64,000 nucleotides of DNA from Actinomycetales bacterium (GCA_018969585.1 JAGWYB010000001.1:4821-68820); one strand, 5' to 3'. Shown: positions 1 to 31,457, numbered from the stretch's first letter. Notes: generated by a model not told the origin, from the letters alone. Made by a program: numbers and translations.

Positions 1-3000
1 CTCAAATGAACTTCTCTTGTTCCTGGGTGCGATCGGAGAATTTCCTTCATGCGGTCTACGACCGGAGGTGTACAGCGCTCTGCTTCGACGCGAATTATGT
101 ATGGCCCAATCGGAGCTTGATTTACATCGGGAATTGAAAGATCAATCGCAGTAATTCTTAGCGTTTCTTCTCGTTTATCAACTCGTCCTCTAATCGAGAC
201 AATTCTATCTTCGATCAGGTTTAAGGCGTGCTGTTGGTAAGAATTAGAGAAAAATAGAACGTCAACTGAGCCCTCTAAATCTTCAAGTGTGACAATCGCC
301 CATGTTGAACCTTGTCGACTAACTTTTCGCTGAACATTAGTAATTAACCCGGCGATCGTAAAAACACTTTCATGGCCGACGCTGTCATCAAGAAGTTGGC
401 TGATGGTTATATCTCTGGCATTTCTTAAAACGTGTTCGACACCCAAGAGCGGATGATCCGAGACATAAAGTCCGAGCATTTCTCTCTCGTAAGCAAGAAG
501 AAGCGACTTCTCCCATTCTTGATTTGGGATATCAAGCGCCACACCAGCGACCCCCGAAGTAATTTGGGTATTGCCGCCAAATAAATCGAATTGTCCAATT
601 GCTTCAGCTCTTTTCACTTCAGATACCGAATCAATTGCCTCTAGATAAACGCTCATCAGTCCTTGACGCGAATGTCCAAGTGAATCGAATGCGCCAGCTT
701 TAATCAAAGACTCGATGGTTTTCTTATTGCATACTGTTGCATCGACTTTCGCAAGAAAGTCTCCGAAGGATTCAAATCTTCCTTTTTCGTCTCGATTTCG
801 AGTAATAGAAGCTACGACGTTTTCGCCAACGTTTCTTATAGCCGCTAAACCAAACCGGATGTCGTTATTTCTAGGAGTGTATTCGGCATCTGATTCGTTT
901 ACATCGGGAGCGAGAACTTTAATTCCCATACGTCGGCATTCGCTCAGATATAAAGCGGTTTTCTCTTTATCGCTTTGTACGCTAGTGAGAAGCGCAGCCA
1001 TATATTCAGTTGGGTAATTTGCCTTCAAGTAAGCCGTCCAAAATGAAATTACTCCGTACCCGGCGCTATGCGCTCGATTGAAAGCGTAATCCGAGAACGG
1101 AATTAGAGTTTTCCATAATTCCTCAATAGCTCCGCTAGAAAATCCGTTTTTAGTCATGCCGGCTTCGAAGTGCACATATTCTTTATCAAGGATTTCTTTA
1201 TTCTTTTTTCCCATCGCCTTACGTAGAAGATCTGCTCGTGCAAGTGAAAAGCCAGCGACCTTTTGTGCGATGGCCATGACTTGTTCTTGATAGACAATTA
1301 GGCCGTACGTATCGTCAAGAATTTCACTCAGCGGTATTTGTAATTCCGGATGAATTGGTTCGATTCGCTTTCGCTTATTCTTTCGATCCGCATAATCATT
1401 ATGAGCGTTAACTCCCATCGGCCCCGGGCGATAGAGGGCGATCACAGCCGAGATGTCGGCGAAAGCGTCTGGGGCCATCGAGCGAAGTAAGGCTCTGATA
1501 GGAGCGCTATCTAATTGAAATACCCCTAATGTCTCCCCTCGGGAAAGTAATTCAAAGGTCTTTCCATCTGCAAGTTCTAACTCCTCAAGGACAACTTTCT
1601 TACCTCGATTCTTTTCGATGTTAGATATGCAGTCATCTAAAACAGAGAGATTTCGAAGTCCAAGGAAATCCATCTTTAGCAAACCAGTCGACTCACATGC
1701 GCTCATATCAAATTGAGTAATAGTGGCGCCATCAGTATCACGCCTATGAATTGGAATCACATCAAGAAGTGGTTCGCGACTTAAAATTACGCCAGCGGCA
1801 TGGACGCCTGGTTGGCGCTTAAGCCCTTCAATTCCGCGGGCCATATCCACAATTATTTTGGCATCGGAATCTTCTTCATATATGTTTCTAAACTCCTGAG
1901 CTTCTTGGAATCGTTCATGCTCCTTGTCAAATATTCCTGAGAGCGAAATGTCTTTGCCCATAATTGAAGGTGGAAGCGCCTTAGTTAATTTGTCACCGAG
2001 CGCGAATGGATAGCCCAGAACTCTTGTTGCATCTTTTATTGCTTGTTTTGATTTGATGGTATTAAAGGTGATGATCTGGGCAACTCGATCTTCACCATAC
2101 TTATCGATCGCATAGCGAATCATTTCGCTGCGGCGGCGCTCGTCGAAATCTAGATCAATATCGGGCATAGAAATTCGATCTGGATTAAGGAAACGCTCAA
2201 AGAGCAAGCCATGCACAATTGGATCGAGCGCAGTTATATCAAGTGAATAGGAAACTAGAGATCCTGCGGCAGAACCTCTACCGGGGCCAACTCTGATGCC
2301 AACTGATTTTGCGTGGGAAACTAAATCTGCCACGACGAGAAAATACCCAGCAAAACCCATCTTGGTCATAACTTCTAATTCGAAATCAAGCCGTTGTCGA
2401 TACTCTGGCGAAGGATTGGGTATCTTCTTTTCTAAACCTATTTTGGCTTGCTTTACTAGCCAAGAATTTTCATCTTCTCCGGAGGGTACCGGGAATTTCG
2501 GTAGCAGGTTTTCATTCTCGCGAAGTTTTACATTGCATCTCTCGGCTATCAGTAGAGTGTTATCGCAGGCAATTTCAACGTCTCTAAATAAATGACGCAT
2601 AGTTGCGGCGTCCTTTAAATAGAACTCATCGCTATCAAATTTGAATCTTTTTGGATCAGCCAGAGTGCTTCCGGAGCCAACTGAGAGAATTGCTTCGTGA
2701 TGACGGGCGTCGCCCTCGTATACATAATGAAGGTCATTAGTTGCTAGAAGTGGTATTCCAAGATCCTTGGAAAGTTGAAGTAATCCCTCTTTTACGCGCC
2801 GTTCAATTTCCAGACCGTGATCCATTAACTCAACAAAGTAGTTTCCTGAGCCGAATATTTCTAAGTACTTAGCCGCTGCAGCGCGGGCCTCGTTGTAGGC
2901 GCCCATCCGCAATCTAGTTTGGATTTCACCGCCGGGGCAACCAGTGGTTGCAATTAATCCCGATGAATATTTCTGGAGTAATTCCGCATCGATCCTTGGC

Positions 3001-25760: not shown

Positions 25761-25810
25761 CCACTTTACTCCCTTTTACTCCATTTTCAACCACCCTCCT
25801 CCATTTATCG
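25761..25810 (-). promoter_or_regulatory. Five 10-nt phased direct repeats, candidate MraZ operator / Pmra region
   Basis: The plus strand reads ccactttact/cccttttact/ccattttcaa/ccaccctcct/ccatttatcg. On the mraZ strand each unit ends in (A/G)(T/G)GG: AAGTGG, AAAGGG, AAATGG, GGGTGG, AAATGG. The array lies about 45 nt upstream of the mraZ start. Confidence 0.5.
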
Positions 25811-25835
25811 CTTCAAACCGGTATTTCTCTAGAAA

Positions 25836-25865
25836 TGAAAAAAGCCCGCCGAAGCGGGCTTTTTA
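25836..25865 (-). terminator. Rho-independent terminator after the DUF3040-like gene
   Basis: A perfect 7-bp GC-rich stem AGCCCGC/GCGGGCT closes a 4-nt loop. On the minus strand it is followed by a T-run, and it begins about 14 nt after the stop codon at 25879. Confidence 0.8.
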
Positions 25866-25878
25866 AAGGCTTTTTTGA

Positions 25879-26220
25879 TTAATCTGGATTTCTGCGATCC
25901 CAACGCTCCTCAAAACGGGCGCTCCACTTTGATCCAGTTTTTGGGGTCCGTGTTCGAGCCATTAATCCCCCAAGGTTTGAGAGAGCCAAAACCGCTCCGC
26001 CTAGAGCTATAGCGAAGCCAAAGACTCCAAGGAGAGGCGTTTTCCCAACCAAGCCGGCTAGTAGCACGAATAGACCGGCGACTATCAAGAGAAAGCCGAT
26101 AACCGCCCGAGAGCGGTTAGGTGTCTTTCCGTTAAAGGTGGAGATCAGCCGCGGGTCGTCTGCGGCAAGGGCCTCTTCCATCTCGGCCAGTAGGCGCTTT
26201 TCATGATCAGATAAAGGCAT
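25879..26220 (-). CDS. DUF3040-like small membrane protein
   Basis: 113 aa with an N-terminal LSDHEKRLLAEMEEALAADDP motif followed by two TM helices. A gene of this type commonly sits upstream of mraZ in Actinobacteria. Confidence 0.7.
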   Translation of the reverse strand: MPLSDHEKRLLAEMEEALAADDPRLISTFNGKTPNRSRAVIGFLLIVAGLFVLLAGLVGKTPLLGVFGFAIALGGAVLALSNLGGLMARTRTPKTGSKWSARFEERWDRRNPD

Positions 26221-26283
26221 AACCAGAGAATAGTAGAAGGGGCTACCCGGCGAAAGTCGAATTGGATATCTGCTCCTGCAAAC

Positions 26284-27471
26284 TCACTGAGAGCTATCTT
26301 CTATCAGCCGAGCGGGTTGAACCGAGCCATGGCCGAAGCGAGCGATGGCTCGATCGATTGCAACCTGCGCTTCCCGCCAACCTCGATCACGGCTTCCCAG
26401 CTCTAGTTGTTCGACCGCTCCATCTTCATCGACGAGCTGATCTAGGCCAATTCCGAGGAGCCTAATCCGCGAGCCAGTTAAATTTAAAGATTTATACAAC
26501 TCTCTTGAGATTTCAAAAACTTCACGCATCCCATTTATTGGCAAAGGTAAGGTTCGTGACTTAGTGAGATTTGTGAAGTCAGAAAATCGCACCTTGAGCG
26601 TAATTGTTCGCGCTCTAAGCAAACGTTTACGCAGACGCTGAGTAACTCGTTCTGCAAGGCGCAACAATTCACGTTCTATATCCTCACTATCTTCTAAATC
26701 GTAAGAAAAAGTTTCGGCTGCGCTGATGCTTTTTTCTGGAGCATCAACGACAACTTCACGAAAATCCCTACCCCAAGCCAATTCGTATAGGGCTTCACCT
26801 GAAATGTCACCGAGCGCCCTTTTTAAAGTATTTAATGGGGTATTTGCAATATCTGCAACAGTTCTTAAGCCGAGTTGCTTTAACGTTTCTCCAGTTTTTG
26901 GCCCTACTCCCCACAGCTCTGTTACCGGAAGTGGATGGAGAAAAGTTAATACTCGGTCTCGTTGAATTTCGAGCATTCCATCCGGTTTACACCTACCTGA
27001 GGCTAGCTTTGCTATGAATTTAGATGATGCAATTCCAACGGAGCAGGTTATTTTTTCTTCATCTCTAACTCGCTCTCTGATTGAATTTGCGATATCGCGC
27101 CCATTTCCGAAAATACGGAGTGCACCACTCACATCAAGGAAGGCTTCATCTAGCGAAAGTGGCTCCACGTAAGGTGTAAATTGAAAAAATATCTCCATCA
27201 CCCTTCGAGAAACTTCCGAGTAGCGATCATGGTCTGGTGGGATAAAGACTGCAGTTGGCGCCATCCGTTGTGCCTGAATTACGGGCATAGCGGCACGGAT
27301 ACCAAACTTCCTGGCTGCGTAATTTGCTGAAAGAACCACCCCGCGAGCTCCCGCCCCAACAACCAGTGGTTTGCCTTTATGTTCTGGGTAGTCGAGCTCA
27401 GAGACCGATGCGAAGAAAGCATCCATGTCGACATGGAGAATCGTTGACTCTTCTCGCCTCATATCACTCAC
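26284..27471 (-). CDS. dinB: DNA polymerase IV (Y-family, catalytic residues intact)
   Basis: 395 aa with HVDMDAFFASV, SLDEAFLDVSG and SVGIASSKFIAKLASG motifs. A QLELGS segment sits at the position of a beta-clamp-binding motif. The start overlaps the dnaE2 stop by 8 nt. Confidence 0.88.
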   Translation of the reverse strand: MSDMRREESTILHVDMDAFFASVSELDYPEHKGKPLVVGAGARGVVLSANYAARKFGIRAAMPVIQAQRMAPTAVFIPPDHDRYSEVSRRVMEIFFQFTPYVEPLSLDEAFLDVSGALRIFGNGRDIANSIRERVRDEEKITCSVGIASSKFIAKLASGRCKPDGMLEIQRDRVLTFLHPLPVTELWGVGPKTGETLKQLGLRTVADIANTPLNTLKRALGDISGEALYELAWGRDFREVVVDAPEKSISAAETFSYDLEDSEDIERELLRLAERVTQRLRKRLLRARTITLKVRFSDFTNLTKSRTLPLPINGMREVFEISRELYKSLNLTGSRIRLLGIGLDQLVDEDGAVEQLELGSRDRGWREAQVAIDRAIARFGHGSVQPARLIEDSSQ

Positions 27472-30400
27472 AAGCAGCGAGATTACGCCACTGGGTATAA
27501 GCGTTAAATAGGTCCCAAGCTCCGGTAGCTTGTAGGGAAAGACCCCGAGGTCCAGTACGTCTAATGGCTCCCCTGACTAATAAGAGCGAAGAACTTCTCA
27601 AAACTTTTGCATAACTATTTTGAGCATCTTCAAAAAAAGTAGAGTCATTACATCCATAGCCATCATCTAAGGTTAGAAACATAACTCGCTTCCCCGAGCG
27701 AATCGGAGGAGTTTGTAGAGCTACTTTTACTCCAGCTACTAGTACCTCGCTCTTTGATCTATGTTGGCGGAGCTGGTCAGAGCGGACTGCGCCTATAGCA
27801 TTTAAAAACTCTGAGTAGAACTCAATCATGTGGTGCGAGACATCCATATTTAAATAAGCAATCTCATTTTCTACTAGCTCATTTCTTCTTAAATCAGGTA
27901 GCCCAGTTTTCTCTAAAGGTGGGGTTAGATTGAATGTAAGTTGTGAGCTGGCGATACTTTTTTTCTGGCTAGAACGAGACCAGCGGTATAGATCATTTAA
28001 GTGAAGTAGCAGATCGCGACGGTTTAACTTTCCTCCGTAAAGCGAGTCAAAAGCGCCTACCATCAGTAAAGCTTCTGTTGTTGGCTTGCTAGAACCCGAG
28101 CGATCGACAAAATCCGGAAGGTCTATAAATGGCCTAGCGCTAATTATGGAGTCAATCTCGGAATCTGTTATTCCAGAGAGATCTTTAAGAGATATTCGAA
28201 TAGCCCCGGCATCAACTCGATAAGTTCGATCGGATAAATTCACATCTAAAGGAGCTATTGCTACTCCGCATCTTCTAGCTTCATCTAGCATCAATCGTTT
28301 CGGGTACATACCCGGTTCATGAGTGAGAATCCCAGCAAAGAAGGCTGCTGGGTAGTGCTTCTTCAACCAAGCTGATTGATAGGTAGGAAGAGCAAAAGCG
28401 GCTGCATGCGCTTTGCAGAAACCAAATGATGCGAAGGCGCGTAATACTTCCCAAACTTCAGTTACAACTTTTAATGGATAACCCAATTTGGTGGCTGCCG
28501 GAAAGAACCAATCACAGACTGCTTGTTGACCATCTCGATCACCGAGAGCGCGTCGCTTCTCATCAGCTTGCGCCAATGAGATTCCGGTTAGTCGGGCGAT
28601 TATCTCTATTACTTGTTCATGGAATACGACTACACCCTCGGTTTCACGCAGAATTGGCTCTAAATCTTGGTGGATTATCGAACGTACTTTCCAGCCTTGG
28701 CGAGCATTTAAAAAGGGAGTAATCATGTCGCTCTTCATCGGACCTGGGCGAAAGAGCGAAATATCGATTATCAAATCGGTGAAAGTTTCTGGAGCAAATT
28801 TTCCTACGAGTTCACGCTGTCCCGGGCTTTCAATTTGGAATAAGCCTAAGGTATTAGTTGAGCGTATTAATTCAAAAGTTGGATTATCGTCAAGTGGTAT
28901 CGAATCAATATCTATCTTTTTTAAATCAACTCTTTCTATTTCTTTGACGGCGTAAGCAAGGCTTGACTGCATTCGAACTCCGAGAATATCTAGCTTTAAT
29001 AGCCCAATTGCTTCTACATCATCTTTATCCCAGGGAATCATTGGGTAGCCACTGGCATTTTTTTCAACCGGTGCGCGATCGTAAAGAGTTATATCAGAGA
29101 GAACTACGGCACAAGGATGCATGGCAAGATTTCTAGGAAGACCATCTAGTCGCTGCGCAAGTCCAACGGCCATCTTCCAGATAGGAGAGGTTAGATTTAG
29201 ATTACGTAATTCGGGTAAATCGTTAAGTGATTTACTAATATTTCTAGCTCTTATATGAGGTAGCGATTTTGCAACTAAATCAACCTCCATCGGCGGAAGT
29301 GATAGCGCGGCTCCGACATCGCGAATTGCATGTCTTGCTCTGTAGGTATCAAACATTGCGACTGTTGCGGTTCGATCTTTATAGCTTTCAAATACTTGAT
29401 CGTAAATCTCAAGTCGACGAGCAGATTCGACATCGATATCGATATCAGGAAGGGCATTCCTTAACGGTGAGCAGAAGCGCTCCATCAAAAGTCCAAGAGA
29501 AAGTGGCTCGACCCCAGATATACCCAGCAAATGACAGATAAGCGAACCTGCACCACTGCCGCGAGCTGCAACTCTTATCCCACTTGTTCTAGCTTTATCG
29601 GTTATAGCGGCGACTGTTAAGAAATATGACTCATAACCCAGTTGATTGACTATTGCCAACTCTTTTTCAAGTCTTGTTAAAACTGCGGAGCGATTAGAGA
29701 TATCTGGATATTTATTAGATATTTCAGCATGAGCGCGCTCTTTAAGAATTCGCGCTAACTCGATCTGATCTCTAGCGCCAGATAGAAAAGGTTCTGGTAG
29801 ATGGATGGAGCCAATTCCAATGTCATCTGCTGGGGATAGTTGGGCTGATTGGGCCCACTCCTGGGTAGTTTTAATTAGTTTTCTACCATCCCTATCTCCA
29901 GCAGCTCTTGCGATTATTTCGGCTATTTGGAACATTTCAGCGCTATCTTTTAAAAAGGCTTCGGCATTTTTACGCTCTACTACATTTTTATGGAGTGGTA
30001 ATAAATTTCGAGAAGCGTCAAGAATATCTGCGATAGGGGCATCGCTACGCTCCTTCATTCTTACGGCATTAGTCAATAAAGCGGGAATCTCATTAGACCT
30101 AGCAAATCCGAGCATGCGAGCTGCGTGAGCGGAAGATCTATACCCTAATTTATCTAAGTGAGACACACACTCAATGGCTTGTGATTTGAAAATATCTCTA
30201 GTTCTATTGAATAACGCTAATGCTCTATCTTCTCTATGGGATGCGATTGATCTGCTTATATCTGAGTTAGGTCCTAATAACGCTAATATATTTTTGGTAT
30301 CTTCATGATTCTCTTCAAAAATTTGATAGTTAGCGGTTCCCGATTTCTTAACCGCAGTCATAAGCCTTACTAGAGATTGCCAGTTACCTGGTGTTGCGAG

Positions 30401-30634
30401 CAAAGTAATTCGAGATTGGTTCTCGTACTCGACATCAACTCCGATGATGGGTGATATCGAATTTTCTTTACAACTAACTACAAATTTAATTGCGCCAGCT
30501 AAAGTGTCGCGATCAGTCAAAGCTATCGAGTTCATATTTAACTCCGCAGCTTTTTCGACCATCGCTTCCGGGAGGGTCGTCCCATATTTAAAGGAGTAGC
30601 CACTTGCTAGGTGTAGATGGGTGAAGCTCATCAT
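27464..30634 (-). CDS. dnaE2: Error-prone DNA polymerase III alpha-type subunit (DnaE2)
   Basis: 1056 aa. It has a PHP N-terminus (FTHLHLASGYSF), is shorter than the DnaE1 at the left window edge, and sits in a LexA-box operon with a Y-family polymerase. Confidence 0.85.
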   Translation of the reverse strand: MMSFTHLHLASGYSFKYGTTLPEAMVEKAAELNMNSIALTDRDTLAGAIKFVVSCKENSISPIIGVDVEYENQSRITLLATPGNWQSLVRLMTAVKKSGTANYQIFEENHEDTKNILALLGPNSDISRSIASHREDRALALFNRTRDIFKSQAIECVSHLDKLGYRSSAHAARMLGFARSNEIPALLTNAVRMKERSDAPIADILDASRNLLPLHKNVVERKNAEAFLKDSAEMFQIAEIIARAAGDRDGRKLIKTTQEWAQSAQLSPADDIGIGSIHLPEPFLSGARDQIELARILKERAHAEISNKYPDISNRSAVLTRLEKELAIVNQLGYESYFLTVAAITDKARTSGIRVAARGSGAGSLICHLLGISGVEPLSLGLLMERFCSPLRNALPDIDIDVESARRLEIYDQVFESYKDRTATVAMFDTYRARHAIRDVGAALSLPPMEVDLVAKSLPHIRARNISKSLNDLPELRNLNLTSPIWKMAVGLAQRLDGLPRNLAMHPCAVVLSDITLYDRAPVEKNASGYPMIPWDKDDVEAIGLLKLDILGVRMQSSLAYAVKEIERVDLKKIDIDSIPLDDNPTFELIRSTNTLGLFQIESPGQRELVGKFAPETFTDLIIDISLFRPGPMKSDMITPFLNARQGWKVRSIIHQDLEPILRETEGVVVFHEQVIEIIARLTGISLAQADEKRRALGDRDGQQAVCDWFFPAATKLGYPLKVVTEVWEVLRAFASFGFCKAHAAAFALPTYQSAWLKKHYPAAFFAGILTHEPGMYPKRLMLDEARRCGVAIAPLDVNLSDRTYRVDAGAIRISLKDLSGITDSEIDSIISARPFIDLPDFVDRSGSSKPTTEALLMVGAFDSLYGGKLNRRDLLLHLNDLYRWSRSSQKKSIASSQLTFNLTPPLEKTGLPDLRRNELVENEIAYLNMDVSHHMIEFYSEFLNAIGAVRSDQLRQHRSKSEVLVAGVKVALQTPPIRSGKRVMFLTLDDGYGCNDSTFFEDAQNSYAKVLRSSSLLLVRGAIRRTGPRGLSLQATGAWDLFNAYTQWRNLAACE

Positions 30635-30921
30635 TAAGCGGGTCTAGATGTGGGGCGGATTCGCCAGATTGGATTTGCTGGATCGGTTATCTCTTCGCGT
30701 TCAATTTCAAAGGTTGAAATAGCGCCCAATGGAGCTGCTTCTACCCGCCAGAGAATTCTTGAGCCATCATCTGGGCGATAGAAGCCATCGCTAGCTCTAT
30801 TCCACCAAGCTCCTGACTCGCGCCAAGAAGAGAGAACTGCATGGATGCGAAATCGTCTACCGCGGAAGGTGAACTCGATTGGTTCGCCCCCGGATAGATA
30901 TATATTTGGTCTTTCGAACAT
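30634..30921 (-). CDS. Small Trp/Arg-rich hypothetical protein, first gene of the dnaE2 operon
   Basis: 95 aa (…SSWRESGAWWNRA…ILWRVEA…IWRIRP…). Its stop shares an ATGA overlap with the dnaE2 start, and its start codon lies inside the LexA box. I recognise no motif in it. Confidence 0.6.
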   Translation of the reverse strand: MFERPNIYLSGGEPIEFTFRGRRFRIHAVLSSWRESGAWWNRASDGFYRPDDGSRILWRVEAAPLGAISTFEIEREEITDPANPIWRIRPTSRPA

Positions 30922-30929
30922 TTGTTCGA
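30914..30929. promoter_or_regulatory. LexA SOS box (TCGAAC-N4-GTTCGA)
   Basis: The sequence is an exact palindrome, TCGAACATTTGTTCGA, matching the actinobacterial/Gram-positive SOS-box consensus. It covers the ATG (30921..30919) of the 95-aa ORF. Confidence 0.85.
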
Positions 30930-31043
30930 ACCTTAGCGAGAGCTACCGACTAACTGCAAACCTCGCGTGTCCTGCCTCGAAATTAGTTGAATTTTCAATT
31001 ATCTAACATATACTTCCCCGGTCCGCTTAATCGAAAGGGAAAA

Positions 31044-31457
31044 ATGGATATCGTCTTAATTATCGGTCGCGTGCTATTTGCGCTGATCTTCATCAACTCA
31101 GGAATCGCACATATCACCAAGCTGCAAGCTATGACTGGCTACGCTCAATTTAAGAAAGTGCCAGCTCCTAAGCTCTCAGTAATCGTAACTGGATTGATGC
31201 TCATTATCGGAGGTCTATATATCGCTCTCGGCGTTTACGCAGACCTTGGCGCAATTCTGATTGCACTCTTCCTAGTCCTATCTGCATTCAAAATGCATGA
31301 TTTCTGGACAATTCAAGATGCCCAAGCCAAGCAAGGTGAGACCATTAATTTCTTCAAAAATCTCTCACTTGCAGGCGCAGCTCTAATCATATTTGTAATG
31401 GTTGGCACCGGAGTCGATTTCGGCCCAAGCATTACTGATGGATTCTTTAACCTCTAA
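31044..31457 (+). CDS. DoxX family membrane protein
   Basis: About 137 aa from ATG 31044, preceded by an AAAGGGA Shine-Dalgarno sequence. It has four TM segments (MDIVLIIGRVLFALIFINSGIAH...). The longer TTG-initiated ORF from 30987 is less likely. Confidence 0.7.
   Translation: MDIVLIIGRVLFALIFINSGIAHITKLQAMTGYAQFKKVPAPKLSVIVTGLMLIIGGLYIALGVYADLGAILIALFLVLSAFKMHDFWTIQDAQAKQGETINFFKNLSLAGAALIIFVMVGTGVDFGPSITDGFFNL

Follow-up and report, generated by a model that had tools for sequence, protein, structure and literature searches.

A free-standing ImuB C-terminal domain protein at the head of a dnaE2 cassette in a streamlined actinobacterium

What is a protein of 95 amino acids doing in the place that canonical mutasome cassettes give to ImuA'? 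The question arises from a stretch of 64,000 nucleotides, here called the window, from an Actinomycetales bacterium (GCA_018969585.1, JAGWYB010000001.1:4821-68820). A small open reading frame on its minus strand, at 30634-30921, is followed by dnaE2, the gene for an accessory DNA polymerase, with the stop codon of the first and the start codon of the second sharing the four letters ATGA. A reading of the sequence alone had taken the product for an orphan, rich in tryptophan and arginine and without any motif that could be placed, and had put it forward as a new accessory factor of the mutasome. The reading frame and the protein quoted for it are exactly right: translation gives 95 residues with 5 Trp, 14 Arg, no Lys and 13 Asp plus Glu, and a pI of 8.4. 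There is more to say about the orphan status and the novelty.

The frame is a genuine gene on which purifying selection acts strongly. Homologues with 55-84% identity come back from a word-indexed protein search in 80 clusters, of which one bears the name Candidatus Nanopelagicaceae bacterium. In a genome search the gene (imuB-C in what follows) turned up in 23 of the genus's 24 other genomes, the sole miss being a genome that is 69% complete, and it lies directly upstream of dnaE2 at all 12 of the genus loci that were fetched. Pairs of orthologues with unsaturated dS give dN/dS values of 0.02-0.14. Taken together, the clusters, the genomes, the constant linkage to dnaE2 and the low dN/dS make imuB-C more than a chance ORF, and the conservation in relatives on which the sequence-only reading staked its proposal is there. 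The tally for the genus, and that for the class given below, include four unpublished genomes (G038, G046, G051 and G058); no locus and no specific claim is based on these four. Metagenomes of freshwater, aquatic and aquaculture origin from five studies, dated 2020-2025, also contain DNA nearly identical to 25800-31100 of the window (sampled-word share 0.91-0.93).

The protein has many relatives. Residues 12-86 match the Pfam family DUF6504 (PF20114) with 42.1 bits and E 1.1e-10, where the curated cut-off is 24.2 bits, and each of the 80 close homologues either has the PF20114 domain or is itself a fragment. An exhaustive profile search collects 1304 representative relatives at E <= 0.001, the best 150 of which are all standalone proteins of 89-198 aa. 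Neither the orphan status nor the lack of a placeable motif survives this. The repeated W-R elements are real and conserved: W33, W39, W40 and W86 are invariant across the genus and high-GC actinomycetes, and R55, W58 and E61 nearly so. They are no trait of an orphan; they are the signature of the DUF6504 family. Within that family the protein is divergent, with 25-31% identity to high-GC members and a Pfam score of 42 bits, as against 50-80 bits elsewhere. DUF6504 exceeds the cut-off in 89 of 151 sampled genomes of the class. Second matches in three large actinomycete genomes (G112, G066 and G131), looked at in case they were ImuB fusions, have neighbours without any Pfam match. Among 14 control genomes DUF6504 matched one, that of Caulobacter vibrioides, a bearer of the canonical imuAB-dnaE2 operon.

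There is a good deal known about what DUF6504 is. ImuB-C, the C-terminal domain of ImuB, was defined in 2013 by Aravind and co-workers, who described standalone copies, SOS-associated ones included, beside the genes for DinB, DnaE2 and UmuC (PMC3765255). The marks by which they recognized it, a C-terminal Trp, basic residues and no catalytic pattern, are all found in the 95-aa protein. The connection to ImuB can be drawn from canonical imuA-imuB-dnaE2 cassettes, gathered from proteobacterial plasmids with a DnaE2 protein as query. PF20114 follows the IMS domains in the ImuB of Methylosinus pOB3b2 (507 aa; 429-504, 29.0 bits) and in that of Rhizorhabdus p2 (518 aa; 437-512, 30.3 bits), and it matches the C-termini of the Paracoccus and Sinorhizobium ImuB proteins below cut-off. 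When the imuB-C family profile is aligned by hhalign to a profile of six ImuB C-termini, the probability is 90.4% (E 1.4e-6) over the first 49 columns only; against a single ImuB C-terminus it is 34.7%. By these comparisons the 95-aa protein is a standalone member of the ImuB-C/DUF6504 family.

Two further observations concern the fused form. The full-length ImuB (IMS plus DUF6504) of Rhizorhabdus dicambivorans p2 lies between imuA and dnaE2 (L047:1030-2586) under the RefSeq/PGAP name 'DUF6504 family protein', which hides that it is ImuB. Word-indexed searches for longer proteins, from a single sequence and from a profile, returned no fusion of IMS with DUF6504, which is weak evidence; what came back was DUF6504 with N-terminal extensions or with HEPN_SAV_6107.

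How, then, does the protein compare with ImuA'? ImuA and ImuA' have a RecA-like fold and about 200-250 aa; this product has 95 aa, is predicted to be all-beta, and matches no RecA or ImuA profile in Pfam or NCBIfam. The likeness to ImuA' that the sequence-only reading saw holds for position, that of a first gene with an SOS box and coupled to dnaE2, and fails for homology, which is to the C-terminal domain of ImuB. Its guess of a beta-rich protein is supported by an AF2 model (24-row alignment, pLDDT 79) with six strands and one short helix. Foldseek finds nothing for this model in the PDB at E <= 0.001 (best E 0.34), VIA-align in its wide setting reaches at most Z 6.5, for cystatin-like chains, a value inside the noise range, and a search of the PDB by sequence yields nothing below E 0.7. 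Remote homology, which had been suggested as a check, is thus visible in the profile alignment to ImuB C-termini and not in any convincing structural relative. The lack of such a relative in the PDB accords with the description of ImuB-C in print as a barrel with a new fold (PMC12926913), one that is not an SH3-like barrel (PMC12926913). UmuD' of Pol V and YolD/YqjX are analogous as small, beta-rich, SOS-induced subunits of RecA-dependent translesion polymerases; they are unrelated to ImuB-C in sequence, and the fold searches of the model (Foldseek and VIA-align, with weak matches overall) gave no match to SH3, UmuD or YolD.

The ATG of imuB-C (30919-30921) lies inside a LexA (SOS) box, the perfect palindrome TCGAACATTTGTTCGA at 30914-30929, which is the sole perfect instance of TCGAAC-N4-GTTCGA in the 1.1-Mb assembly and is identical in 12 of 12 genus loci. 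With the start codon inside the box, the invariant N-terminus of the genus, Met-Phe-Glu, is the operator read as codons. Copies of the box with 1-2 mismatches occur upstream of lexA (two) and immediately in front of recA, taken as its longest ORF (G000:C31:91943-91958, which is outside the window; L036:1339 and 1397; L035:2485), and so far as these motifs tell, the streamlined genome has an apparently very small SOS regulon. From the operator alone I infer that the cassette is SOS-induced. The claim that imuB-C is the first gene, SOS-controlled and coupled to dnaE2, agrees with a box lying over its ATG, so far as control can be predicted, and with the ATGA overlap.

A promoter-like pair of hexamers can be read next to the box on the minus strand: TTGCAG (30954-30959) and TAAGGT (30930-30935), separated by an 18-nt spacer. 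A consensus promoter scan does not list the site; the hexamers TTGnnn and TAnnnT keep their spacing to the SOS box across the genus loci. The distance from the end of the -10-like hexamer to the ATG is 8 nt, which suggests that the imuB-C mRNA is leaderless or nearly so, with LexA sitting on the start site. Contigs from metatranscriptomes, DNA carry-over not being excluded, fall on the cassette in four libraries from three studies. Two of them, X15 (30143-30986) and X16 (30517-30908), bridge the junction of imuB-C and dnaE2; the contigs carry no information on start, strand or membership in a single transcript. Within one study, two runs have contigs ending at 30908 and at 30914, just past the ATG on the imuB-C side, and those of a third run reach 30986.

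Downstream of imuB-C come two polymerase genes on the same strand. The first, dnaE2 (27464-30634), encodes a DnaE2B-type accessory C-family polymerase of 1056 aa, with Pfam domains PHP, DNA_pol3_alpha, finger, HHH_6 and OB, that is 43-60% identical to the dnaE2 product of the same cassette in other Actinomycetes. It overlaps by 8 nt the gene for a Pol IV-like Y-family polymerase of 395 aa (26284-27471; Pfam IMS, IMS_HHH and IMS_C), which scores 369.6 bits against the NCBIfam model of DNA polymerase IV, over the cut-off of 367, and whose catalytic motifs are intact (DMD in VDMDAFFASV, SLDE in SLDEAF). The C-terminal tail of this enzyme holds a RecA-NT-like motif, EAQVAIDRAIARFGHGSV (26320-26373, minus strand), found by local alignment to the bacterium's own RecA. 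Against the N-terminal oligomerisation motif of that RecA, EKQKALDTALAQIERQFGKGSV, the tail scores a modest 40; shuffles give 22.7 +/- 4.0, and 6 of 2000 reach 40. The tail also resembles that of the PolY of Tessaracoccus lapidicaptus (NAR 2026 supplement).

After the Y-family gene, by 63 nt, begins a gene for a DUF3040 protein of 113 aa (25879-26220, minus strand; E 1.2e-22), and beyond it is the strongest intrinsic-terminator-like hairpin downstream of the cassette (25839-25864, minus strand), with an 11-bp stem and a T run, which is a possible end of the transcription unit. The DUF3040 gene, which ends at the hairpin, may share the transcription unit of the cassette.

Is this set of genes a mutasome without ImuA and ImuB? 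The genome itself, a 1.1-Mb assembly that is 81% complete, has in profile searches one RecA, a LexA and a single IMS match, and each of five relatives that are 96-100% complete likewise has a single IMS match. No ImuB was found in the 81% of the genome at hand, where the sole Y-family gene is catalytically intact. In that genome and the five relatives the ImuA model matches nothing except RecA, and that below cut-off; the model is narrow, staying below cut-off even in Caulobacter, so the absence of ImuA has to be read as 'not found with this query'. Subject to that reading, the cassette has what defines the module, an accessory DnaE2 in a genome without ImuA and ImuB. That DnaE2 is the accessory enzyme is a matter of comparison with a second DnaE of 1179 aa on the same contig, which matches DNA_pol3_alpha with 322.6 bits, as against 241.3 for DnaE2. 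The stronger match is the reason to take the 1179-aa protein as DnaE1, likely the replicative enzyme. In the window it lies at about 1659-2462 (minus strand) and the flanks of that segment, some 28 kb from dnaE2.

Such modules have been described. ImuB-C in DnaE2 modules lacking ImuA and ImuB was reported by Timinskas and Venclovas in 2019 (PMC6511836) and again in 2026 (PMC12926913), when they named the type 'DnaE2B-PolY-ImuBC-RecA' and found it in Actinobacteria only (PMC12926913). In their genome table, one DnaE2B and one PolY-core are entered for Ca. Planktophila species as well as for Ca. Nanopelagicus hibericus (PMC12926913). The representative of the type is the module of T. lapidicaptus (VEP41449, which is the ImuB-C, with VEP41450, VEP41451 and VEP38936), and for it AF3 models, and models only, gave a 'good tetramer' (PMC12926913).

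The likeness of the present cassette to that module is extensive. The ImuB-C proteins have 95 aa here and 99 aa there, and share the signature F/W-R-G-R ... W-x-E-x-G-x-W-W ... W-R-V-E-A ... C-terminal W; the high-GC rows of the family alignment share the motifs of VEP41449 too (NAR 2026 supplement). Both modules have DnaE2 without ImuA or ImuB, an active-type PolY (395 aa in both) with a RecA-NT tail, and control by a LexA box (predicted here), and both belong to the class Actinomycetes. There are differences too. Identity to the high-GC members is some 25-31%; the N-terminus here is the operator-encoded Met-Phe-Glu, where the counterpart begins R-R-Y-D-D-P; the ImuB-C of the genus has an extra tail, I-R-P-T-S-R-P-A; and the host genome is streamlined, at 1.1-1.5 Mb.

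The canonical ImuA(ImuA')-ImuB-DnaE2 system (M. tuberculosis Rv3394c, Caulobacter, Pseudomonas) shares with the cassette a homologous C-terminal domain and the association with DnaE2 and SOS; in that system it is joined to a catalytically dead Y-family domain and cooperates with ImuA, whereas here it stands alone. A third arrangement is the two-gene DnaE2B-ImuBC module of the Arthrobacter alpinus type. As here, the DUF6504 gene is immediately upstream of a dnaE2-like gene; unlike here, no Y-family polymerase follows. Arthrobacter sp. YA7-1 carries a mobile copy of this module on the conjugative plasmid pYA7-1a (L042 2707-6996), where PGAP annotates the small gene as 'DUF6504 family protein' and where a convergent gene for an SRAP (SOS-response-associated) peptidase, and no Y-family polymerase, adjoins the module.

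How widely does the order of genes hold? A wider set comprises 18 loci: some belong to the genus, some to a second genus of its family, and the others to about a dozen further families of Actinomycetes. Box, imuB-C, dnaE2 and Y-family polymerase come in that order in the 12 genus loci and the 18 wider loci, as far as each stretch reaches, save for one wider locus with no Y-family polymerase after dnaE2. All 18 wider loci have a GAAC-N4-GTTC box in front of the cassette.

One gene sets the loci apart. Between imuB-C and dnaE2, 10 of the 12 loci outside the Nanopelagicaceae have a gene for HEPN_SAV_6107 (PF18726), recognized at 125 bits in both of the ORFs scanned (L020:6115-6762 and L023:6244-6771) and by matching gaps in L016-L019, L021, L022, L024 and L029. 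The cassettes of the Nanopelagicaceae loci, and those of L028 and L030, showed no such gene, and none turned up in the window or in the bacterium's own genome at 81% completeness, a difference from most high-GC loci. A 2013 survey of HEPN proteins gives no gene context for HEPN_SAV_6107, and the main text of the 2026 polymerase survey does not mention HEPN (PMC12926913). Perhaps HEPN_SAV_6107 is a fourth part of the module that has been overlooked. With no HEPN gene in the Nanopelagicaceae cassette, its stoichiometry or partners could differ.

I propose that the product of imuB-C is probably a small subunit, without catalytic function, in a mutasome of the DnaE2B-PolY-ImuBC-RecA type that is induced by the SOS response and dispenses with ImuA and ImuB. 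In this model, DNA damage would cause LexA to leave its box, and the three overlapping genes would be expressed together. [quoted passage not shown] Acting in trans, ImuB-C would take over the job that ImuB's own C-terminal domain performs in cis in the canonical system of ImuA', ImuB and DnaE2. Its most likely role would be that of a small adaptor on DnaE2 that joins the PolY-RecA part to it. From the way start and stop codons overlap, translation would seem to be coupled and the components made in matched amounts.

The step on which this model turns is the binding of ImuB-C to DnaE2. I infer it from published AlphaFold models and from yeast two-hybrid data on the fused domain of M. tuberculosis. 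In the AF3 model of the M. tuberculosis proteins ImuB-C lies on the PHP domain of DnaE2 (PMC12926913), and the C-terminal region of ImuB, which is essential, binds DnaE2 and ImuA' (quoted in PMC6511836). Predictions of the complex of the present ImuB-C with residues 1-330 of DnaE2 scored 0.00, 0.43 and 0.00 in separate runs, which speaks neither for nor against binding.

A different view is that ImuB-C is chiefly a DNA-binding sensor that recognizes damaged DNA or stalled primer termini and guides the polymerases to them, rather than an adaptor on DnaE2. A role in lesion sensing or recruitment was proposed when the domain was defined (PMC3765255), and standalone ImuB-C has also been recorded with Ku/ligase and photolyase operons lacking DnaE2 (PMC3765255). 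The composition of the protein can be argued either way: it is Arg-rich and mildly basic (pI 8.4, no Lys), and its invariant positions are Trp, Arg and Glu with no catalytic pattern, yet 14 Arg set against 13 Asp plus Glu leave a small net charge. Foldseek and VIA-align brought up no nucleic-acid-binding fold that is known, and the documented partners of the fused domain are proteins, DnaE2 and ImuA' (PMC6511836). I consider the sensor unlikely as the chief role, a live idea still and a weaker one than the adaptor, with which it is compatible.

Small genes with SOS boxes in Actinobacteria are often regulators. Could imuB-C be another, a checkpoint protein, a division inhibitor, or an inhibitor or chaperone that keeps DnaE2 inactive until it is wanted, unconnected with polymerase assembly and merely sharing the operon? 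It does occupy the first position, predicted to be the one most tightly controlled by LexA. Against this stand its homology to the C-terminal domain of ImuB, its strict linkage to dnaE2 across many families and an overlap with it that suggests translational coupling, and the idea is an improbable one. The shortness of 30634-30921 might also bring to mind an ORF arisen by chance in dnaE2's 5' leader, but the probability of that is negligible, the conservation data having already refuted it through dN/dS of 0.02-0.14, 1304 representative relatives at E <= 0.001, the match to a Pfam family and the confident prediction of an all-beta fold.

An adaptor subunit of the mutasome is what is left as the best reading, given the homology to ImuB-C, the order of the cassette and the LexA box, and to that extent the sequence-only reading was right in calling the protein a mutasome accessory factor. 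It was wrong in calling the factor new, ImuB-C having been published as a standalone protein in 2013 and within DnaE2 modules in 2019 and 2026. A confident match to a known family with an unrelated role was to have undone the proposal; the match is confident, and the role proposed for the family is the same one. The family, the type of operon, the model of the complex and the coverage of the host lineage are all in print already: the finding is real but known.

What does the cassette mean for the bacteria that carry it? On the practical side, imuB-C ORFs annotated 'hypothetical protein' can be given the name 'ImuB-C (DUF6504) family mutasome subunit' instead. A genome of about 1.1-1.5 Mb has kept this cassette of 4.6 kb under purifying selection, which is an argument for regarding the small subunit as indispensable for DnaE2 to function. 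More tentatively, and with somewhat less than an even chance of being right, the acI/Nanopelagicaceae cassette might be regarded as the minimal natural form of a split mutasome: three overlapping genes, with no HEPN, ImuA or other Y-family polymerase, and with the operator in the first codons of an mRNA that probably has no leader. If ImuB-C does bridge PolY-RecA to DnaE2, the cassette would be the simplest system for reconstituting a translesion machine made of two polymerases. And if the model is true, then UV-induced mutation in a highly abundant lineage of freshwater bacteria would come mainly from these three genes.
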